From contig NC_091478.1 of NCBI RefSeq assembly GCF_036971445.1, positions 11,222,001-11,286,000 on the forward strand: a stretch of DNA of 64,000 bases. Direction: 5' to 3'. The stretch's first letter is position 1. Every line of letters begins with the position of its first letter. Positions 11,330-58,709 of the stretch are shown here, piece by piece. The translations under genes and the position numbers were made by a program. Source of the stretch: Narcine bancroftii (Eukaryota). The notes under the pieces are model-generated. The model saw only the letters and a list, made by a program, of their open reading frames with translations. It was not told the origin of the DNA and made no database searches.

Positions 11330-13315
11330 CCTGATTGAGTTGGTCGTTGAGGAGTCTGATGGTGGAGGGGCAGCAGCTGTTCCTGAACCTGGTGGTGCCA
11401 GCCCCGTGGGCGCCTGCACCTCTTTCCTGATGGCAGCAGCGAGAGCGGAGCCCGTCCCAGGTGACGGCAGCAGCGAGAGCGGAGCCCGTCCCAGGTGACG
11501 GCAGCAGCGAGAGCGGAGCCCGTCCCAGGTGACGGCAGCAGCGAGAGCGGAGCCCGTCCCAGGTGACGGCAGCAGCGAGAGCGGAGCCCGTCCCAGGTGA
11601 CGGCAGCAGCGAGAGCGGAGCCCGTCCCAGGTGACGGCAGCAGCGAGAGCGGAGCCCGTCCCAGGTGACGGCAGCAGCGAGAGCGGAGCCCGTCCCAGGT
11701 GACGGCAGCAGCGAGAGCGGAGCCCGTCCCAGGTGACGGCAGCAGCGAGAGCGGAGCCCGTCCCAGGTGACGGCAGCAGCGAGAGCGGAGCCCGTCCCAG
11801 GTGACGGCAGCAGCGAGAGCGGAGCCCGTCCCAGGTGACGGCAGCAGCGAGAGCGGAGCCCGTCCCAGGTGACGGCAGCAGCGAGAGCGGAGCCCGTCCC
11901 AGGTGACGGCAGCAGCGAGAGCGGAGCCCGTCCCAGGTGACGGCAGCAGCGAGAGCGGAGCCCGTCCCAGGTGACGGCAGCAGCGAGAGCGGAGCCCGTC
12001 CCAGGTGACGGCAGCAGCGAGAGCGGAGCCCGTCCCAGGTGACGGCAGCAGCGAGAGCGGAGCCCGTCCCAGGTGACGGCAGCAGCGAGAGCGGAGCCCG
12101 TCCCAGGTGACGGCAGCAGCGAGAGCGGAGCCCGTCCCAGGTGACGGCAGCAGCGAGAGCGGAGCCCGTCCCAGGTGACGGCAGCGTTCCGCTTGTGTTT
12201 CCTCCGTGATGCACCTTTCTCGGGGTCTTCCCCCCCCCGTGGTATTGCCCCCCCCCCCCCCCCACCCACCCAGGCTGGGCTGTGAGGCAGCCGGTTGACC
12301 CACTTCCCACCGCACATCTGTAGGACTTTGCCAAGGTTCTTCGACGTCACCGCAAACTCCTCAGAAAGTGGAGGCGCCGGCTGATGTGCTTGCTTCGCCG
12401 TGACATTTGCGTGTTTGGCCCTCGGAGATAGTGACTCCCAGGAGTTTAAATTTGCTCACCCCCCCCCCCGATTTTGGTGGCATTGAGTGCGAGGTTGTTT
12501 GTGCACCATTCAGTTAAGTTTTCAATCTGCCTCTTGTATACTGTCTCATTGCCTCATTTTATTCAATCGTGGAATTGACAGCAAATTTATAGATGGTGTT
12601 ATTGTTATTACTGAGCCTCACAGTCACAGGTAGAGCAGGAGGCTAAGAATGCAGCCCTGTGGTGCTCTGGTACTGATGGAAATTGTGGAGGAGATGTTCT
12701 TACCAATCCACAATGATTGAGGCCTGGAGGTGAGGAAATCCAGGATCCAATTGCACAGTGGGGTGTTGAGGCCCAGGTCTTCGAGTTTGCTCATCAGGTA
12801 TGAAGGGCTGATGGTGTTGCATGCTAGAAGGTAGTAGATAATGTATCCCGATGGATACATTTTTGCTGTCCAGGTGTTCCAGTGTTTTGTGTAGAACCGG
12901 TTAGATGGTATCTGGTATAGACCTGTTGGTGTGTTAGGCAAATTGGCACTGATGCACGTCACCACTCAGACAGGAGATGATATGCTTGAACATCAGCCTC
13001 TCAAAACACTTCATCACTGTGGGTGTGAGTGATCGGTAGTAATTTAGAAGACCACCGTACTCTTCTTGGGCACAGATATGATTGTGGTCTATTTGAAACA
13101 GGTGGTACCACAGCCTTCTGGAGTAAGACGTCGAAGATGTCTGAATATACATTGGCAAGTTGGTCAGCAAGGTTTTAAGTATTCTGCCATGTATTCTGTC
13201 CAGACCGGATGCTTTCCTTGGATTCACGCTCCTGAAGGCAGCCTGCACGTCATTGTTGGATACTGATGTGGGGGTGCACAGTGGTGCTGCCTTGGTCTGG
13301 TGGTCAAATTGGGTG
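11330..13315 (-). mobile_element. Rex1/Babar-type LINE (degenerate RT) in NSMCE4A intron 1
   Basis: ORF remnants 'SVNPRKASGLDRIHGRILK', 'VMKCFERL', '[14 protein letters not shown]...[15 protein letters not shown]'. Confidence 0.85.
11428..12186. repeat. 34-bp minisatellite (GACGGCAGCAGCGAGAGCGGAGCCCGTCCCAGGT), about 22 copies
   Basis: Visually identical tandem units, embedded in the LINE. Confidence 0.95.
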
Positions 13316-28115: not shown

Positions 28116-29639
28116 GATTTTGTTGCTGATCAACACCATTATGATAATTTAGGCACTTGGGGAGCCACATTGGTCAGAATCTTGTCAGGCCAGGTCAGAT
28201 ATTGGACCATCTTCAATGAACATTTTGGCACCTATATTTTGGCACCTCATGTTTGAAAGGCACAGAAAACAGAATGCTGGAAGATCTCAGTGGGCAAAGC
28301 AGCATCTGTGCAGGAAGAAGCCATTTATTGATGTTTCACGTTGAGACCCTGCATTAGGGCAGCACAGAGGAAAGATAGCCAGTGTACACCAGTACAAAGG
28401 AGGGATGGAACTGAGGCTAGGAGGTGAGATGGGATAATGGGCAGATGATCTGAGGTGGGGTAGGAGATGGGAAAGGTGAACAAAATGAGAAGAAAGCTGT
28501 GCGTGTGTGTGTGAACATCACTGGGGATATTAGTTACCTCAAAATGGAAAATCAAATTTTCATTCCATTGGGTTGTAAGCTACCCAAGCTTAATGTGGGA
28601 TGTGATTCTATTTTGTCTTTGGCCTGTCTGTGTCAAAGGAGAAGTATGAGACAGATTTGTGAGGGAGTGCAAAAGAGAATTACAACTACGAACAATACAA
28701 ACCTCGATGGGCTTTGCTGATTGAAAGGTGAAAATAATGTCATCCTTGGGGATCTTAAAAATCTTGCCACCATGGAGTTCTCCGCCCAAGATAACAGTGC
28801 CTGTGCTATGCAGTGTGCCACAATAGGACACAGACTCCAGGGAGCAGCATCCAGTGCAGGACACCAGAAATGCAAAGAACACCTTCCATGGAGAAGCTGA
28901 AGCCTGGGAGATAACCCTCCAGGGAAAATGACCAACGAGGGACCCACACAGGCTGCTGTATTGGAAGTTTGGACCTGGAGCTCAGACTGCCAATGGATTG
29001 AATTGGCTTATGTGCGGCTGCAGAGATCGTGAGAGCTCTGGATATGAATCCACAGGCATTCATTGTCATGAATCCACAGACATTCATTGCCTTTTGCTTC
29101 TCTTATTATTAGGGGTGCCAGGCAATGGTCATGGTGACACTGACTTACAGCAGACAAAAGTTGAAGTATACCATGTATATTCCATTTTTATTTATTACGA
29201 CAATAAAACCTTGAACCTTACAGGAGCAATAGGAAAAGTTTGTTGCCACAATAGATGTGTCAGGTGGACTGGGGCAAATTTGAAATCATGAAAAAGGAAC
29301 TGTAGGAGACAAAAGTATTGGAACAATGCCAGAGAAGGTAGAGTATTGAAGAGGAAGCACAAACCCATAGAAGCAGTGAGGGATTGAACAAACTTGAAAT
29401 GTTGTGGCTGTGGCAATGTCTTAGTTGGGATATTATCCAGGAACAGAACAGTGGAAACCACAGTAGAACTGTGAGAGAGACTCATGTAAGCTCCATCATG
29501 GAGAGGAGGAAAACCTCTTCAAAGTGGGTCTGTCATTAAGAGAATCTGCAGTGGAGCCATGGTAGACAACTGCAATAACAAGTGCAGATCAGCAGTGTGA
29601 TGGAATATTCTTCATTTGCCCGAATGAGTCATGCTCGAA

Positions 29640-30170
29640 TTAGACAGAGGATAGGTGCTCCACAAAACAATCTCCTAGTGTATGTCCAGTCTTTCTGATA
29701 TAGAGGACACAATTTTTGACATGCTCTGTAAGTGATATCACAAGTGATTCTTCACCTTGGAAGGACTGTTTGGGGTCCTGAATGGTGGTGAGGAAGGTGT
29801 GGACACCAGTGTCACAGGGTAGTTACTGAAGGAGCGATTAGCAGGAAGAAGTGAGTGGACAGGAGAGTCACAGAGGGTGCGATCTCTCCAGAAAAGAGAG
29901 GGTACATGTGTCTGGAGGTGGGAAATTATGGAGGATAATGTGTTGCATACAGAGGCTAGTGAGGACAAGGTTGGTTCTAGTGATGGAGGGGGCCAAGGCA
30001 GACACGTGGGTCGTAGAGGGGAACCCACATCTCTTGAAGGACATCTCATGGGTCCTGGAAGACTTCATCCTGGGTGCAGATGTGACAGAGGAATAAAAAG
30101 GAACAGAATCCTTCCGCAGGACAGGGTGTGAAGAAGTGTAGCTGAGCTCAGTGGGAGGTGGTGGGCTTGT
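29640..30170 (-). mobile_element. Penelope-like fragment
   Basis: Reverse complement of the family at 9880-10400 and 33600-34330. Confidence 0.6.
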
Positions 30171-30457
30171 ACAAAATATTTATATTGACCATCTCCTTCC
30201 TTTCCGTGCCTCTATTCAGGTGCTTATGTGCTTTTCTGCCCGTACCTGGACGGTGCCCAGTTGAGGCCTGAAACGTTGGGTTTTTAAAAAAAAACTTTGC
30301 CGCCAATGTCTGTGCCTTTTCACCCCTTGTTTTCAGGCTACGACTCCTTTGGGACTGAAGTTAAGGACCCCCCCCCCCCCCCTCACCGCGAAGCAGTCGT
30401 TTACTTCCATACTTCTCCCGACTGCATTTTTCTTTTAAATCATGATTTGTCTGTTGA

Positions 30458-30720
30458 CCCCTCCCCCCCATCTGTTGTGGGTTCTCCCCCCCATCTGTTG
30501 TGGGTTCTCCCCCCCTCCCCCCCATCTGTTGTGGGTTCACCCCCCCTCCCCCCCATCTGTTGTGGGTTCTCCCCCCCCCATCTGTTGTGGGTTCTCCCCC
30601 CCATCTGTTGTGGGTTCTCCCCCCCATCTGTTGTGGGTTCTCCCCCCCTCCCCCCCATCTGTTGTGGGTTCTCCCCCCCATCTGTTGTGGGTTCACCCCC
30701 CCTCCCCCCCATCTGTTGTG
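30458..30720. repeat. Variable minisatellite, core CCCCCCATCTGTTGTGGGTTC(T/A), about 10 units
   Basis: Directly visible, about 110 bp upstream of the ATE1 exon 1A ATG. Confidence 0.9.
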
Positions 30721-30832
30721 GCCGTCGGGCTGTGCACTCTTTCTGGGCTGGGTGGCGTCGACCTTCCTTCCATGTGACTGGCATCCCCTCCCCCTGTCTG
30801 GCAGGTGACCGGCTGCACACCCTCTCCGCGGA

Positions 30833-30917
30833 ATGCACTCCATCGTGGAGTACAAAGGCCTGAAGTCGGACTATCGCTGCGGCTACTGCAGCCTGGCGAA
30901 CGGAAAGGCGGCCGTGG
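30833..30917 (+). CDS. ATE1: ATE1 alternative first exon 1A (MHSIVEYKGLKSDYRCGYCSLANGKAAVG)
   Basis: Resembles mammalian exon 1A (..VEYKGL....CGYC); donor G|GTAAGT, phase 1, compatible with exon 2. Not in the ORF track. Confidence 0.9.
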
Positions 30918-31154
30918 GTAAGTCCGTGCGCGCTGGGAAGCCCTCGACTTGGTGACCGGGGCTGGCGAGTCGCTGCAGACCCCCCACCCCCGCCGACTCA
31001 GGCTCCCCTCCACTGCTCGCTTCGGGCTCCAGCCGCCGGCCGGCCAAGTGTCATCCGCCTCGCGTTCCCTGCGAAGGCCTCAATGGTCTGAACAGGGCCT
31101 GGGCTCCGCGGGTGGGGCCGACGGGGCCTTTCCGGTGGGCGCGGCCGTCTTTCC

Positions 31155-32204
31155 GCCCCGCCGATTGGTGGGGGCCTGACCCCCCCCCCCGCCGATTGGT
31201 GGGCGCCTGACCCCCCCCCCCGCCGATTGGTGGGCGCCTGACCCCCCCCCCCCCGCCGATTGGTGGGCGCCTGACCCCCCCCCCCGCCGATTGGTGGGCG
31301 CCTGACCTCCCCGCCGATTGGTGGGCGCGGCCGTCTTTCCGCCCCGACGATTGGTGGGCGCCTGACCCCCCCCCGCCGATTGGTGGGCGCCTGACCCCCC
31401 CCCCCCGCCGATTGGTGGGCGCCTGACCCCCCCCCCCCCGCCGATTGGTGGGCGCCTGACCTCCCCGCCGATTGGTGGGCGCCTGACCTCCCCGCCGATT
31501 GGTGGGCGCCTGACCTCCCCGCCGATTGGTGGGCGCCTGACCTCCCCGCCGATTGGTGGGCGCCTGACCTCCCCGCCGATTGGTGGGCGCCTGACCTCCC
31601 CGCCGATTGGTGGACGCCTGACCTCCCCGCCGATTGGTGGGCGCCTGACCTCCCCGCCGATTGGTGGGCGCCTGACCTCCCCGCCGATTGGTGGGCGCCT
31701 GACCTCCCCGCCGATTGGTGGGCGCCTGACCTCCCCGCCGATTGGTGGGCGCCTGACCTCCCCGCCGATTGGTGGGCGCCTGACCTCCCCGCCGATTGGT
31801 GGGCGCCTGACCTCCCCGCCGATTGGTGGGCGCCTGACCTCCCCGCCGATTGGTGGGCGCCTGACCTCCCCGCCGATTGGTGGGCGCCTGACCTCCCCGC
31901 CGATTGGTGGGCGCCTGACCTCCCCGCCGATTGGTGGGCGCCTGACCTCCCCGCCGATTGGTGGGCGCCTGACCTCCCCGCCGATTGGTGGGCGCCTGAC
32001 CTCCCCGCCGATTGGTGGGCGCCTGACCTCCCCGCCGATTGGTGGGCGCCTGACCTCCCCGCCGATTGGTGGGCGCCTGACCTCCCCGCCGATTGGTGGG
32101 CGCCTGACCTCCCCGCCGATTGGTGGGCGCCTGACCTCCCCGCCGATTGGTGGGCGCCTGACCTCCCCGCCGATTGGTGGGCGCCTGACCTCCCCGCCGA
32201 TTGG
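31155..32204. repeat. 27-bp minisatellite (GGTGGGCGCCTGACCTCCCCGCCGATT), about 38 units, between ATE1 exons 1A and 1B
   Basis: About 10 variable units (C-run length differs) followed by about 28 near-identical units. Confidence 0.95.
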
Positions 32205-32261
32205 GCGCGGCCGCCTGGTGGGTGGGCGGGGTCCGCTCGTTCCGCCCCGCTGTGGAGGATC

Positions 32262-32358
32262 ATGGCCGCCAGCGCTGCGACTATCCTGGAGTACTTCCCC
32301 GAGGAGGAAGGGTACATGTGTGGTTACTGCAAGGACACTTCCAGTAACTACTCGAACG
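32262..32358 (+). CDS. ATE1: ATE1 alternative first exon 1B (MAASAATILEYFPEEEGYMCGYCKDTSSNYSNG)
   Basis: Resembles the human ATE1 N-terminus (..DYFPSEDFYRCGYCK...SNG); donor G|GTAAGG, phase 1. Confidence 0.95.
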
Positions 32359-32799
32359 GTAAGGGGAAGGCCGTCAGCGCGGCGATGCGGAGGGGTGCGG
32401 CGAGAGGTGGTCCCCGTTCGGGGGGGCTGGGTCAAGGCCCAGTGAGTTCAGCAAGAGGCCGGGAATGGGCTGCTCCTCGCTCTCACGCTCTTCTGCAGCT
32501 TGGGGTCACCAAGTCTGGCAAAGCTCTGGGGTGCAAGTGTGGATTTGGGGGTTGTTTATTGTATTTATAATAGCCTCATCGAGCTATCATTCAACACAAA
32601 ACGGGCAACGTCAAAGCATCATGCTCAGCTGGTCATTTATACAGCAGTGGAACAGAATCCACCCCCCCAGGACGAGGTAACTGGGAGATGGTACAAAATC
32701 TTTACATTGTCTAGCTCCTTTCCTCCTTCCTCGCACCTCTTTATTCAGACACCTACGTGCTTTTCTGCTTGTACCTTGATGGGGCTCAGTGCGGGCCTG

Positions 32800-35740
32800 A
32801 AACGTTGGTGCGTGGGAAAATGTTGGCAGTCCTCTGAACAAAAAGGTGAAAGGGGGGGGGGGCACCATCCCAAAGGCAGGAGGTGATAGTTGGAGGAGGG
32901 GGGGAGGGCGGAGCAGCAGGCAGGGGGAGGAGGGATGGCGAGGTGAAAAGAGAGGGAAGGGGCAGAGAGCTGAGGGAAAGATGGGGTGGGGGGGGGGTGG
33001 AGGAGAGCAGGTTAGCAGAAACCAGGGAAGTCTGTGTTAATGCCATCTGGGTTGGAGAGTGGCTAGACAGAAAAATCAGTTCTCCAATTTTCAGGTGGTC
33101 TTGATGGGTTAGTACAGAGGCCAAGGATAGATGGGTGAGTGGGATGCAGAACTGAAATGGCTAGCCATTGAGAGGTCCTTGCCACTGGTGCTGACAAAGC
33201 CAAGGTGCTCAGCAAAACATTCTCCCAGTGTCCAATATAGAGAAGGCCACAAAGGGAGTACCGGATGCAGCCAATCGGGTAGATACATAAGTGAAGTGTT
33301 ACTTCACTTGAAAGGCCTGTTTGGGGTCCCAGTCTTCCGTTGAGGTAGGAGGTGTGGGCGCAACCGTGGCATCTCCTGTGGCCACAGGGGAACGTGCCAG
33401 AGGAGGATGATGATTGGTAGGGAGGGTTGAGTGCACAAGAGAGTCACTGAGAAAGCAGTCCCTACAGAAAGCAGAGAGGGGAAGATGTGTCCGGTAGTGA
33501 GATCCTGTCGTAAGTGCCAGAAATACCAAACGATGCGGTGTTAGTTGAGGATAGGTTGATAGAGATTATCTGAAATGTTTGCTTTATTCCACAAACGTGG
33601 CTTCCCCTCTACCACCATCAACTTAGCCCTCACCTGCATCTCCTCCATTTCCTGCTCCTCTGTCCCCAGACACAGGGTTCCCCTTGACCTTACCTACCAT
33701 CCCGCTAGCTTCTGCGTCCAACACATTATCCTCCTGAATTTCCAGCATTTACAACAGGATCTCACTACCAGAGACATCTTTCCCCTCTACCTGGTGTCAG
33801 GTAGAGGAGAAGATGTTTCTCCTACTAGATACTACTATATCCTACCATTAGACAAATTCCCCTCTCCGCCTTCTGCAGGGACTGCTCCCTATGTGTCTCC
33901 CTTGTCCACTCCTCACTATCCACCAATCTGTTGCAGTCACAGGATACAATCCCTGTGATCGCAGGAAATGCTCCACTTGCACCCACACCTTCTCCCTCAC
34001 TACCATTTGGGGCGCCAAATAGTCTTTCGAAGTGAAGCAACATTTCACATGTGAATCTTCATCCAGTGCTCTTGTGGTCTCCTCTGCATCAGAGAGACTG
34101 GACGCAGACTGGGATATCACTTTATTGAGCTCCTTGGCTCTGCCGCAATAACATGGATAACCCAGAGGTCACCCATTTCAATTTTCCATACCATTCCCTT
34201 GCTGACATGTCTATCATGGTATCGTGCACTGCCAGACTGAGACCACCTGCAAATTGGAAGAACAACACCTCATCTTCCGACTGGGCATCCTCCAACCAAA
34301 AGGCATTAATTTTGACTTCTCTAGCTTTTGTTTAACCCCCTCCCCCTTTCTTCCTCCATCGCCTTTTCCTACCTCTTACGTTATTTTACACAGCCACTGT
34401 CTTCCAGGAAATTATTCCAAATTTCCTGGAACACAGTCTGTGTAAAAAGATTAGAACTAGGATAAGGACTCATTTCCATTCTGAAATTTTACCTCCTCAA
34501 TCCATAGTTATTTGCACAGATTGCTTGCAGTCTAAACTGAACTGTGGCGATCTGTAAGCAATAGGAGTCTTTAAATACTGCACTTCAGGTATTCTGTCTA
34601 AAATTGAGATGTGATGCAGATATTTGGAGTTTTAGTTGTTCCTGTGTGAATGGCAACTCCTTGAAGGTAGGGAGACACCAGAAAGGAAAAATCACGCAAG
34701 TTCTATGTTTTAAAAAAAAGTCTCTCCATTCTGTCCCCTTTCGTGTACAAACGTGATAAATTCCCACCTCGATTCTTATCATCCTTTCATTGGTCTGGAT
34801 TCCTCTCCTAGCCAGAGTTGTCTGAATTCTGAAACTCTTGAGTTTTCCTGCTTTTGGCTTATTCTTTGAAAAAGGGCTCAGGCTTGAAATATCAGCAATA
34901 TATCTTTGTCTCCTAAAGATGCTGAAAAGACTGGCTGAGTACCTCCAGCATTTCGGTGTGTTTTTACATTTTTACCTCTCCTCCCCCCTCTGCCTTTCGT
35001 AGGGACTGTTCCCTCTGTGACTCCCACATGCACTCATCCCTCCAGACCCCAACCCCGGCACCTTTCCCTGTTGTCGTAGGAGGTGCCATACTTGTGTCCA
35101 CACCTCCTCACTCAACACAGTCCGGGGCCCCAAATGGGCCTTTCAAGTGAAGAAACACTTCACTTGTGTATCTGCAGGATTGATTTGCTGCAATCAGTTC
35201 TCCCTTTGTGGGCTTCTCTACATCAGGCAGACTGGGAGGCCACTTTCTGAGCATCTAAGCTCTATCAGAACCAGTGAGTGGGACCTCCCAGTGGCCAACC
35301 ATTTCAGTTCTGCAGCCCACTCCCATTCTCACATGTCTGTATGTGGCCTCATGTACTATCCCACCAAGACCACTCTTAAATTGGAGAAACGATACCTGAT
35401 TTTCTGTCTGGGCACTCTCCAGCCAGATGGCATTAACCTTGACTTCTTTGGTTTCTGCTAACCTGCTCTCATTTCCCTCCTCCCATCTTTCCCTTGGTTC
35501 TCTTTTCACCTACCCATCCCTCCTCTCCTTGTTTGCTCCTGTGCCCTCCCTCCACCACCTATATTATCTCCTGCCTTTAGAACCATGTTCATTTTCCCCC
35601 ACACCTCCCATTTTACCTTTTTGTAGATGTTTCAGCAGTTGTCTGAACATTTATCTTTGCTATATAAAGGACACTATTTGACCAGCTGTGTTTCTCCAGC
35701 ATCGTATTTTTACTTCAACCATGGTGTCTGCAGACATTTG
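32800..35740. mobile_element. Cluster of Penelope-like fragments in both orientations
   Basis: About 32800-33560 (-), 33570-34330 (+) and 34860-35740 (+); 'KHFTCVSAGLICC..FSLCGLLYI.QTGR', 'PVANHFS', 'KLEEQHLIFRLG.LQP.GIN.DF'. Confidence 0.7.
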
Positions 35741-35884
35741 TGTTTTATAAAATGGACAATATTGGAAATACTCAAAGGTCAGACTGCACATGTTGGCAGA
35801 GAAACAATTCATGTTTCAGGGATTAAGAATAGTCAAAACAGCTGTTAGAGTTGGTAGGCTTGTAATAGGTTTTAATTGCTAATA

Positions 35885-36927
35885 CAGGTACACAATCCTT
35901 TATCCGGACATCTAAAATCCAGAAAACTCCAAAATCTGGCAAGTGGGGAGAGAGACAGCAGCGCGAGTCGGGCGGGCGAGGGGGAGAGACCGGCAGGGCG
36001 GGCGAGGGGGAGAGACCGGCAGGGCGGGCGAGGGGGAGAGACCGGCAGGGCGGGCGAGGGGGAGAGACCGGCAGGGCGGGCGAGGGGGAGAGACCGGCAG
36101 GGCGGGCGAGGGGGAGAGACCGGCAGGGCGGGCGAGGGGGAGAGACCGGCAGGGCGGGCGAGGGGGAGAGACCGGCAGGGCGGGCGAGGGGGAGAGACCG
36201 GCAGGGCGGGCGAGGGGGAGAGACCGGCAGGGCGGGCGAGGGGGAGAGACCGGCAGGGCGGGCGAGGGGGAGAGACCGGCAGGGCGGGCGAGGGGGAGAG
36301 ACCGGCAGGGCGGGCGAGGGGGAGAGACCGGCAGGGCGGGCGAGGGGGAGAGACCGGCAGGGCGGGCGAGGGGGAGAGACCGGCAGGGCGGGCGAGGGGG
36401 AGAGACCGGCAGGGCGGGCGAGGGGGAGAGACCGGCAGGGCGGGCGAGGGGGAGAGACCGGCAGGGCGGGCGAGGGGGAGAGACCGGCAGGGCGGGCGAG
36501 GGGGAGAGACCGGCAGGGCGGGCGAGGGGGAGAGACCGGCAGGGCGGGCGAGGGGGAGAGACCGGCAGGGCGGGCGAGGGGGAGAGACCGGCAGGGCGGG
36601 CGAGGGGGAGAGACCGGCAGGGCGGGCGAGGGGGAGAGACCGGCAGGGCGGGCGAGGGGGAGAGACCGGCAGGGCGGGCGAGGGGGAGAGACCGGCAGGG
36701 CGGGCGAGGGGGAGAGACCGGCAGGGCGGGCGAGGGGGAGAGACCGGCAGGGCGGGCGAGGGCCCATTCGGATGGGCAAGGGGGTTGGGGGAGATGGCAG
36801 CATGACTGGAAGCGGGTGGGGATGGATACGGCAGCACAATTCGGGTGGGCTTAAATCTGGCTTTCCAAAATCCGAAATTCGGAACACACTGTCCCCCAAT
36901 GATTCCGGATAAAGGATTGTTTACCTG
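35885..36927. mobile_element. TA-flanked MITE containing a minisatellite
   Basis: 24-bp TIRs CAGGTACACAATCCTTTATCCGGA / TCCGGATAAAGGATTGTTTACCTG (1 mismatch), TA on both sides. Confidence 0.88.
35970..36762. repeat. 26-bp minisatellite (GGGCGGGCGAGGGGGAGAGACCGGCA), about 30 copies
   Basis: Visually identical tandem units. Confidence 0.95.
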
Positions 36928-39900
36928 TATATCTCATGAGATGGAGACAAATAGTTCCAAAAAAGAAATGAGGCAAAGATTGACTTTGTGAAAGTGAGGG
37001 CAGGATGAAAATGAGCAAAGTTATAAAACTTGAGTTCTGCATAATCTGCAAGGAGTCCATTCTGTTTTTTTTCAATTCCTCCGATAATGACTCTGAAATG
37101 TTTCTTTCTTTCTGAACTGTGGTTTCCTCTGTACCTTTGTTAACAAAGCCCTTGACTACATCTCATCATTTCCTGTTTCTTCAACCCCTCTCTGAGTAGA
37201 ACAAACCTTTCATCTTTACTATCCTCCCTTTTGGCACTTCACAGCAAGCATTCTCTTTGTGACTTAATGATCCACTTCTCCTTTCCCACCAACCTCCTCT
37301 CTCACTAACCCTAACCCTATTCTGACTTTCAACCAAAGATAATGCAACACTTGTCCTTGCACCTCTTCCCATCTCCAGGGACCCAAACAGTCTTTCTAGA
37401 TGAAGCAGTGATTAACTTGTATTTTTTCCATTCTTGTATTTGTTGTTCAGTGTTGGTTGTCTCAGCATTGAGGAAACCAAATACAGAATGAGTAATTGCT
37501 TTGCCAAACGAACACCTCCATTCATTCTGCAGGAACGACTCTGGTTTTTCTCTCACCTTCTACTTCCAATTTCCTTCTCTCATTTTCACTCTGACCTTTT
37601 GGTGTGGTCACCTTTTGGTGACACACAGATCCAACAAAGCAAGAGGTGCAGCATCTCATCTTTGGGCACAGAGCAGTCTTCTGGATTAAATTTTGATTTC
37701 TACAACTCTACAACTCAGTCAACTCTAATCTCTCTGTATCAGTTCATTTTTGCTTTTTTTTCTCAGTTGAGAACATTTTCAACTTGACATTCTCACATCA
37801 TCCTGCTCTTCATTTTTGTTTGTTTCCTTCTGCTCCCTTTCATGCATTGACCTAAAAATCTCTTTGTAGCTTATTCCTATGGTCACCCCAGTTTTGCCCA
37901 AAAAAGCTTCTTTTGTCTTCCTTTCAGTTCCGCCGAGATGTCTCTGACGTGAAACGTTAACTCTGACTCTCCTCCATTGGATACAGCCTGACCTGCAGTG
38001 TATTTTCATTTTTCTCCCATTTTGTTTTCAATTGATAATCAACTGCAGTTTTGATTTTTCTTCAAGGTTATCGCATTCATTGATGGAAATTGATACCTCA
38101 GATCTTGTTTTTATGAGCTTGGATAAATGAGTATGGAACACTACTTCAGTAATTAAATGTGATATCTAATTGCGTGGTATTTGTCAGTAGTTTGCTAACA
38201 TTGTCCTCCTCTGCTTCAAGGTGGATTAATTTGTCTTTTAAATGCAATGAAGGGTTCAACACATTAATATTGTGTGGAAAACTAGGTTAGGATAAGTTTT
38301 GAATTGATAATTTTATGGGGGAATTTTGATATTTCTTGTTAACACAAAATAATGTGTGTGAGGAGAATACCTTCTGCTATCAAGAGATGTGAGGATTGGT
38401 AGATTAATTTGCCAATGTAAATTAATCTCAAAGGTAGCGGACATAGCTAGATTCATCACAGGCTCCAAAATCCCATCATTGAAGAAGATGATGAGAGACA
38501 CTGCCTCAAGAAAACAGCCAACATTATATCTCCCTGGCCACAATCTCTTCTCGGTGCTATTTTTATGAGAAGATAGTGTTCAAGAACAGTTTCTTTCCAA
38601 CTGCTATCAGGCTTTCCGGACTGCTGCAACATCGAAAAAGGGCTGTCGACCCTCTTTGTCTTGCACTATGGTAACTTAATATTAATTTCTTTTGTACTCA
38701 TCTCTTTAATCTATACTATTGCAATTGTTTTTTTTCATGAAGTACCTGTATAGCTGCATCAAGTAAGAATGTTGGTGTACGTGGACATTGATAAAGAGTT
38801 TATTGTCATATACATGGTGCAATGTGCAGGTGAATGGTAGAATCTGGGCATAATTGCTGAGTTGCCAAGGAGTGTTAAAATTAAATGGAATTAATGTAAA
38901 TGGATGGTTTAATTTCCCCAATATTGATTGGGATTTTCTTAGTGCAAGAGAATTAGATGGGACCAAATTTGTTTGGTGCACTCAGGAAGGTTTCTTAAAG
39001 CAGCATGCAGATTAGTCCAAACAAGGAAGGGGTCATGCAAGGCCCTGTATTAGAAAATGAGCCTGGCCAAGTGATCAAAGTTTCAGTGGAGGAGCATTTT
39101 GGGAATAGTGATCATAGCTCCTTAAATTTCAAGCTCGTTATGAAAAAGAATAAGCTGGACCTTGTGGGGAAAATGCAAAATTGGGGGAGAAAGACAAATT
39201 ATGGCCTTATTTGAAGCTTGGAGAAGTTGATTGGGAGCAGAGGTTCATTCTTCATATTCTCTATTTTGAGAGCAAGAAAAAGATGGTCCTTTGAAGAAGA
39301 TTTAGCTGTATGCCCTTAAGGGCCTGGTGGGATGTATCCCACATGACATGCTGAAAAAAAGCTGTTTAAATGCAGAAGTCCTTTTCTTCTGGAAACAAAA
39401 GGCATTTTCGGATGGCCAAAATTTCCGCTTGTAAAGCCGCATATTATGGCCACTTGAATGCACAGGAGGTGTCTGCGAGGCTAACTTTGTAACCCTCCTC
39501 CAAGATGGATAATCGCCTCAGCACAGAGCCCCCCACCCCGGCCATCTAAATGTAGCTGCCTGAAAGCGGCTGCATTCGGGATGACAGTCAGCTGGCGAGC
39601 GCCTGACAGCTCCTCTCCCAGCTGCCCCTTCCCCCGGTGCGGGACATCAGGGCAGGGGCAGCCGGCGTAGGCTGTCAGTGCGGGGACTGAGAATCATGAC
39701 TTATCGAAACCTCTCACCTTTTAAGTTTAGTGGGATTTTGTGTGCGGGCGTAAGCCCCATACTCCCTCACTGGCCGCCCCAGCCCCGTACTCCCCCACCG
39801 GGGGATGTCCCCGCGCTGATAGCCCTCACCAGCTGTCCCAGCGCTGACAGCCCTCACCAGCTGTCCCAGCGCTGACAGCCAGCCATCCCAAAATCCCAAA

Positions 39901-40429: not shown

Positions 40430-40759
<330 letters not shown>

Positions 40760-56224: not shown

Positions 56225-56398
<174 letters not shown>

Positions 56399-58067: not shown

Positions 58068-58162
58068 AACTAAATAGTAAATCTTTGCCAATTTAATTTC
58101 CTATTCTAAACATTTTATCAATTATTTACATTGAATGTTTACATGGATCTCCTGCCCTGAAG

Positions 58163-58291
58163 GTGAAACTAGTGCCAGTTTCCTTCGATGATCCAGGTTT
58201 CACTGAATCCTTTAACCAATCAGCGACTCTATATTCCAAGTATCAGATGGCTGTGCACCATGATTCAGATGATGAATGTAGTGTGTCAGAG
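58163..58291 (+). CDS. ATE1: ATE1 mutually exclusive exon 7B (VKLVPVSFDDPGFTESFNQSATLYSKYQMAVHHDSDDECSVSE)
   Basis: 129 nt, phase 0/0; acceptor CCTGAAG|, donor GAG|GTAACT; paralogous to 7A. Not in the ORF track. Confidence 0.96.
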
Positions 58292-58709
58292 GTAACTTCT
58301 TTAATATTTCTTACTTTACTGTGCAGTTTCTTACATTAAGTGCGGTTACTTTAATGGTATTTCATGGAAAAAAATAGTTCCAATATGGTCATGATGAAAG
58401 GCCTGCAGTATATCTTTGCTCCCTACAACATTTTGAGCATTCTGGTTAAGGAAGTAATCTTTCCAATTTGTCAACTGCCCAATAATAGTCTTCCATTAGT
58501 CCATATTCAAGTTTGCCATCTGATTGTACGTATACATATACAGCGTGACAGAACGGGGCATTTCTGGACCATTGTGCACGTGTGTGCAGACACACAGATG
58601 CGTGTGCAGACATGCACAGGCACACACAGACTCCATACACCCTTCACCTAAACGATGGATAAACAGAGATTTCCAAAATAAATGTATGTGAAAATTATTT
58701 ACGGTTTCT

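Follow-up and report, generated by a model that had tools for sequence, protein, structure and literature searches.

The 28-bp enhancer repeat of TYMS is a promoter minisatellite with transcription factor sites, and the promoter VNTR of TPMT reportedly is another such minisatellite. Promoter VNTRs that carry transcription factor sites are described as well known in PMC8096271. Among 10,264 human gene-proximal VNTRs, 163 were linked to expression, twice as often when located within 100 bp of the start site (PMC8024321), a prior that comes from short VNTRs (mostly <140 bp) and not from an array of 1 kb. Tandem CCAAT boxes are also a feature of the LTR12/ERV-9 U3 region, where 5–17 tandem elements of ~41 bp contain CCAAT, GATA and MZF1 sites and where NF-Y binding and enhancer activity have been shown (PMC11853044). 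For NF-Y, boxes have to lie at least 24 bp apart, and the CCAAT promoters targeted by c-Fos favour spacings of 31, 41 and 52 bp (PMC4982600). In addition, NF-Y keeps promoters nucleosome-free and helps to fix the start site (PMC6624317).

In the mouse, Ate1 and Dfa, the latter overlapping exon 1A, are transcribed from a shared bidirectional promoter (P-Ate1), which is the interval between exons 1A and 1B of Ate1 (PMC2773024). The preliminary description of the DNA studied here had mentioned this bidirectional promoter with its antisense Dfa transcript, which that paper bears out. Here we report on a 64,000-nt stretch of the genome of Narcine bancroftii, an electric ray (the window; all coordinates are those of the window) in which a repeat array lies between the two ATE1 first exons. 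No report of this array was found in a literature search whose coverage left out most subscription journals; among the matches listed, none pairs ATE1 with a repeat term, none concerns Narcine, and 0 deal with elasmobranch minisatellites.

Structure of the array

The preliminary description had proposed a 27-bp array of about 38 copies, and this was confirmed by TRF, by cutting at the CCAAT box, by motif counts and by read depth. TRF reported a period of 27 and 37.5 copies at 31156–32204, and cutting at each GATTGG yielded 38 boxes, all of them CCAAT boxes on the minus strand, which span 31163–32204 and delimit 37 complete units. Arranged head to tail and with a unit within 7–100 bp, the array is a promoter minisatellite. 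Its 3' end lies 57 bp 5' of the exon 1B ATG (32262), as had been estimated.

The 37 units comprise 28 identical 27-mers, one single-base variant of them (31605), seven poly-C units of 29–33 bp and one distinct 33-bp unit (the B unit, 31316–31348), which is a near copy of the left-flank module described below. From left to right, four poly-C units are followed by one 27-mer, the B unit and three poly-C units, which together form a heterogeneous block (31163–31442) with CCAAT spacings of 27–33 bp and with poly-C and B-type contigs in sequencing run X1. Comparison of the unit sequences places the remaining 28 units of 27 bp (27 identical and the single-base variant) in a homogeneous block at 31443–32198, where a T interrupts the C-run and every unit contains a quasi-palindrome. 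The left-right polarity of the array may in part be due to this T, which breaks the C-run in the major unit.

The unit has a GC content of 0.74 and three CpGs. The CpG observed/expected ratio was 0.77–0.82 over 31001–32500, and the one 27-mer of 29 that deviates does so by a change other than a CpG transition. ATG is absent from both strands of the array, and AG is absent from the plus strand across 31096–32255.

Location of the array in ATE1

Each of the two first exons agrees at 100% identity with the N-terminus of a RefSeq isoform, which supports the earlier assignment of the gene as ATE1 and of the array to the interval between exons 1A and 1B. The coding part of exon 1A (30833–30917, plus strand; 28 codons, phase 1, GT donor at 30918) matches N. 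bancroftii isoform X9 over 29 aa. That of exon 1B (32262–32358, plus strand; 32 codons, phase 1, GT donor at 32359) matches N. bancroftii isoform X3 over 33 aa and is spliced to exon 2 in runs X6 and X7. The shared exon 2 (40586–40652, plus strand, end approximate) is the target of the loose end of an RNA contig, and a 21-aa piece of it matched Pfam ATE_N (E 1.2e-4, 22.6 bits, under the 27-bit cut-off). Pfam gave no match for exon 1A or for the first exon of the upstream gene, and for exon 1B it gave weak unrelated matches only. A downstream exon shares 99% identity with ATE1 of Narcine bancroftii and 62–75% with the remaining shark and ray proteins (46 hits from 123 candidates), and N-termini of the 1A and 1B types are both present among the 41 ATE1 proteins retrieved from sharks and rays.

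Several other features of the gene were recorded. Exon 2, read as 40586–40660, apparently ends at a GC donor (GCAAGT) and not at GT. Two paralogous exons at 56246–56395 and 58157–58306 match alternative Narcine ATE1 isoforms, and they fit the mutually exclusive ATE1 exons 7a/7b reported for mammals (PMC7797038). The isoform X5 model of Scyliorhinus canicula ATE1 has a 15-residue N-terminal extension before a 1B-type start, which is not repeat-like. At the gathering threshold, Rfam gave 0 matches in 29500–37500, and the ATG frames on the minus strand at 30400–31160 are short or run into a 23-bp repeat.

The start of exon 1A is 330 bp upstream of the array, on the same strand. Transcripts from 1A therefore carry the array within their first intron, and only the 1B start is adjacent to it. 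The array is thus not the core promoter of 1A, on which it could act only indirectly. A coding role was considered for the array and rejected: the reading frame of the 1B ATG stays open across the homogeneous block but has no ATG there, and none of the Narcine isoform N-termini that were read (7 of 9) has a repeat extension. In-frame near-start codons upstream of the 1B ATG are limited to one ACG (31614), a CTG (32250) and an ATC (32259).

Transcription factor motifs in the unit

The inverted CCAAT box had been described as standing in good NF-Y context in each unit, and this was borne out, as 37 of the 38 boxes are one mismatch away from a 13-base NF-Y consensus. The window contains 41 matches to this consensus against 2.9 expected in shuffles. 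Judged by consensus match and by spacing (27–33 bp, above the 24-bp minimum), the boxes are predicted to be NF-Y sites of the multi-CCAAT type.

The GC box, likewise claimed for each unit, was only partly upheld. CCCCGCC occurs 37 times in the array, but the canonical hexamer (GGGCGG/CCGCCC) occurs in none of the 27-bp or poly-C units and in 1 of the 37 units overall, the B unit. Between 30725 and 32360 there are four such hexamers, located in the left flank (31153), in the B unit (31339) and in the unique leader (32224 and 32242), and the two full matches to the GC-box consensus KGGGCGGRRY in the window both lie outside the array, in the unique 57 bp. Having no canonical GC box per unit, the amplified unit is not a CCAAT + Sp1 composite. 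The shorter GGCGG present in the unit might still allow weak Sp/KLF binding.

TGACCT had been noted in the homogeneous units and was found 29 times in the array. We judged it unlikely to be a nuclear-receptor element, as the half-sites are 21 bp apart and have no 5' extensions of the kind typical of monomer sites. TATAA had no match in 30725–32360.

Read depth and length variation

Four of the nine runs listed (X1, X5, X6 and X7, from three studies) were compared, as assembled contigs, with 32145–32690, and the unit was present with 0 differences in all four. In run X1 (DNA), the unit contigs had depths of 134.3 and 137.3 in comparison to 5.44 for a 1239-nt flank contig, a ratio of 24.7–25.2, which as a contig depth gives no exact copy number; the window predicts 26.4–27.0 copies of the words of these contigs. 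X1 may be the source sample of the assembly, in which case the agreement tests the assembler and not an independent animal. Nevertheless, such agreement excludes an array inflated during assembly, as well as large copies at other loci; reads with only a few units, which the preliminary description had named as the mark of an artefact, were not what the ratio of ~25 against the 26–27 predicted revealed.

The B-type contig of X1 stood at 0.81 of the flank depth (4.4 vs 5.44), and three poly-C contigs stood at 1.5–2.0 times that depth. A 30-bp unit at 2.0 times the flank depth in X1 is absent from the window, which implies either that homopolymer error blurs the C-run lengths or that the second haplotype has different ones. 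The left units had been described as variable in C-run length and the right ~28 as near-identical. The division itself stands, with poly-C units restricted to 31163–31442 and the right 28 consisting of 27 identical units and one variant, but the exact C-run lengths are unreliable.

Run X5 (DNA) comes from another sample and study and has another organism label. It contains the full 57-nt tandem cycle without a difference at a depth of 18.9, and a 258-nt flank contig without a difference at a depth of 4.7. The ratio of unit to flank is 4.0, corresponding to ~5 perfect units, with a crude sampling range of 1.7–13; it is a rough value, as cover is patchy (none at 32205–32238 or beyond 32496) and no X5 contig joins unit to flank. 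Library bias may lower the X5 ratio, the GC content being 0.74 in the unit vs 0.64 in the flank contig. The data suggest that the array differs in length between samples, with ~27 perfect units in X1 vs ~5 in X5. The claim of a variable copy number thus gained a hint from the ratios of ~25 and 4.0, but the crude range of the latter (1.7–13) and the lack of any record that spans the array keep it from being more than that.

RNA from exon 1B and from the array

Runs X6 and X7 were treated as RNA because their contigs contain an exon junction. In both, a 1068-nt contig extends from 32175, which is 30 bases inside the array and is also the start point of the DNA contig, across exon 1B into exon 2 (40586); the intron at 32362–32690 is without cover in both runs and was not used as evidence. 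Exon 1B is therefore transcribed and joined by splicing to exon 2 (2 of 2 RNA-like runs examined), and the array, 57 bp before the 1B ATG, is at the promoter of an expressed gene. Both runs also contain the unit, and the closed promoter that the preliminary description had envisaged as a counter-argument was not observed.

The tandem cycle of the unit was found in X6 at a depth of 111.5 and in X7 at 19.9, and the poly-C unit was found in X6 at a depth of 2. Some RNA covers the array sequence, as seen in these RNA-like, strandless contigs. Spread over ~26.5 copies, the unit depth amounts to 4.2 (X6) and 0.75 (X7) per copy, a low level with which starts inside the array, antisense RNA and 1A pre-mRNA are each compatible.

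Origin of the array and other minisatellites in the window

The left flank contains a promoter module with a canonical GC hexamer (31134–31162, plus strand), 27 bases of which (31134–31160) are repeated exactly in the B unit (31320–31346). At the right end, the unique 57-bp leader (32205–32261, plus strand), which is covered by RNA-like contigs, is a degenerate, CCAAT-less relative of this module with full GC boxes at 32223–32232 (plus) and 32239–32248 (minus). The array is bracketed by a 12-bp direct repeat (31136 and 32202), and flanks and units align with one another. These findings agree with the original proposal of an amplified promoter module. Once the extra units are subtracted, the 1A donor and the 1B ATG are 308 bp apart, and the only CCAAT box in this interval belongs to the amplified unit. 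Membership in the LTR12 or another retroviral U3 family was rejected, as the unit aligns to the gene's own flanks and the locus alone accounts for the X1 depth. A DNA hairpin driving the expansion found no support, single-stranded DNA folds of the two strands having unremarkable z-scores of -1.1 and -0.9.

Besides this array, the window contains three other minisatellites with units of at least 23 bp, and seven arrays make up 6.1% of the called bases of the 64 kb. One of these minisatellites (30460–30721; 23–31-bp units, 10 core copies) stops 111 bp short of the ATG of exon 1A, so that each of the two alternative ATE1 first exons is closely preceded by a repeat array. A CpG-rich array of 34 bp x 22 (11428–12185) lies beside a dispersed repeat and has 20 of 20 counted units identical; upstream of it there is a coding first exon (~10921–11155), which by synteny resembles that of NSMCE4A. 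An array of 26 bp x 30.5 starts at 35970, with all 30 complete units identical and with 31 GGGCGG hexamers. It is located in ATE1 intron 1, inside an element with a 27-bp terminal inverted repeat (35882–35908 / 36904–36930, 96%), and this element (35882–36930) is probably a DNA transposon. G-rich 13–14-bp repeat arrays at 243–2792 flank four N gaps (1575 N), which indicates that not all repeat tracts are resolved in the assembly.

The array of GC hexamers inside an intronic element implies that motif arrays arise away from start sites too, and with two equally homogeneous arrays in the window, homogeneity and motif content are weak signs of function. In size, in homogeneity and in having a motif per unit, the ATE1 array is ordinary within the 64-kb window. 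CCAAT was present in 4 of 1485 circularised 27-mers of nearby GC-rich unique DNA and both motifs together in 0 of 1485, a rate that leaves room for selection of a CCAAT-bearing unit. The capture of a CCAAT box would thus be uncommon, although in a genome with many arrays of this kind some promoters should show it.

Discussion

We consider it reasonably probable that the array, a genuine promoter minisatellite, originated by local duplication of a CCAAT module, was amplified and tolerated in repeat-prone DNA, and is largely saturating in its effect. The proximal CCAAT module of the exon 1B promoter would have been duplicated in tandem, giving the 33-bp B unit; the middle of the module, presumably single in the ancestor, would then have changed to the poly-C form, with duplication of the block, and the T-interrupted 27-bp variant would have expanded last, at the end that faces exon 1B. 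Such growth could be ascribed to the readiness with which the local DNA makes GC-rich minisatellites, and its tolerance to the absence of an ATG and of a splice acceptor from the array: longer leaders gain no upstream ATG frame, and the 1A pre-mRNA gains no acceptor.

The array would most likely act as a redundant multimerised NF-Y platform at a promoter that stays active. It is predicted to bind NF-Y and to add start sites. CCAAT boxes usually lie 60–100 bp before the start site, and the last box, only 57 bp from the ATG, is close for this position, so that transcription could be started within the array by boxes lying deeper in it. A few boxes are probably enough to saturate output, and copy number would then change expression little.

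Several other explanations were weighed against this one. An origin of the array in misassembly, or in the inflation of a short repeat, is extremely unlikely: four N gaps in the window adjoin G-rich repeats, the C-run lengths of the reads differ from the consensus and no examined record spans the array, but the X1 depth ratio fits the prediction, B-type and poly-C contigs occur in X1 at 0.8 and 1.5–2.0 times the flank depth, and the unit is free of differences in 4 of 4 runs from three studies. The array might instead be a transcriptional rheostat, in which the number of NF-Y sites sets 1B output and, via antisense transcription over exon 1A, the 1A/1B ratio. The 38 near-consensus boxes beside the 1B start and the apparent difference between ~27 and ~5 perfect units point in this direction, as do the bidirectional mouse interval with Dfa overlapping exon 1A (PMC2773024), promoter VNTRs whose factor sites can alter transcription (PMC8096271) and the LTR12 U3 CCAAT arrays that are NF-Y enhancers (PMC11853044). 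However, the unit has no canonical Sp1 hexamer, neighbouring boxes at the 27-bp spacing are off phase at 2.6 helical turns (alternate boxes, 54 bp apart, and the poly-C units are near phase), the window has similar arrays at sites other than promoters, and the copy number of the BORIS promoter minisatellite had no clear relation to reporter output (PMC4973313). On balance we regard the rheostat as unlikely.

An effect at the level of RNA appears quite improbable. Here, starts inside the array would produce multi-unit 5' leaders that pair into a long duplex and lower the translation of 1B, so that longer arrays buffer or reduce the protein. Folding models indicate that long leaders could slow the translation of 1B: five sense units folded at -69.7 kcal/mol (z -5.0, a value inflated for a repeat since shuffling destroys periodicity; none of 200 shuffles reached this stability), with an antisense z of 0.04. 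The tandem cycle is present in both RNA-like runs (111.5 and 19.9), the 1B contigs reach the array and the array offers no upstream ATG. On the other hand, a leader with two units folded no better than shuffles (z -0.67), the contigs give no strand, start or single molecule, and the depths of 4.2 and 0.75 per copy are explainable by low-level 1A pre-mRNA, antisense RNA or DNA. It is very unlikely that the expansion is harmful, with a methylated or weakened 1B promoter, as in the GC-rich promoter expansions of human disease (of the EPM1 type), which can silence genes (PMC8744678). The unit does have three CpGs, but both RNA-like runs join exon 1B to exon 2 and contain the unit, in arrays that may differ in length from that of the window, and neither the CpG observed/expected ratio of 0.77–0.82 nor the sole 27-mer variant, which is not a CpG transition, speaks for silencing. 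We see a slim chance for a 38-site NF-Y lattice that combines these effects, with a ladder of starts at 27-bp steps in both directions, a sense duplex that limits ATE1-1B translation, antisense transcription over exon 1A and an array length (~5 to ~38 units) that sets the 1A/1B balance.

ATE1 is an essential N-degron enzyme, and its alternative N-termini are conserved across sharks and rays. For now, the locus adds another promoter minisatellite, set in repeat-prone DNA and standing out by its size and its motif (38 CCAAT boxes). If the length variation is confirmed, it would represent a natural allelic series of a core-promoter element, which would test whether NF-Y sites are additive or saturating, whether boxes at the off-phase 27-bp spacing are fully occupied and whether start sites spread into the array. 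Should the 38-site lattice be true, the natural alleles would test how promoter output scales with the number and phasing of NF-Y sites.

Comparison with known systems

Like human eVNTRs (PMC8024321, PMC8096271), the array consists of a GC-rich 20–40-bp unit by the start or ATG of an expressed gene, has a factor motif per unit and apparently varies in length. It differs from them in being ~1 kb long with 38 copies, whereas the human loci are mostly below 140 bp (PMC8024321), and in that the repeated motif is the CCAAT box itself. Its position between the alternative coding first exons 1A and 1B is shared with mouse P-Ate1, for which the available text of PMC2773024 mentions no repeat and contains 0 occurrences of 'CCAAT'. 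With twin and multiple-CCAAT promoters (PMC4982600 and PMC6624317) it shares direct-repeat boxes at least 24 bp apart beside GC boxes, the absence of TATAA and, in the poly-C units, spacings of 29–33 bp near 31. In contrast to the CCAAT dimers of PMC4982600, the spacing of its major unit is 27 bp, off the helical peaks, although with alternate boxes, 54 bp apart, it comes close to the peak at 52 bp. By analogy, the LTR12/ERV-9 U3 array appears to be the nearest functional analogue: there too, tandem CCAAT boxes of the same orientation and of variable number lie upstream of a start, and RNA extends across the repeats. LTR12 is retroviral and has thousands of dispersed copies, whereas the ray unit comes from the host gene's own promoter and its NF-Y sites are predicted.
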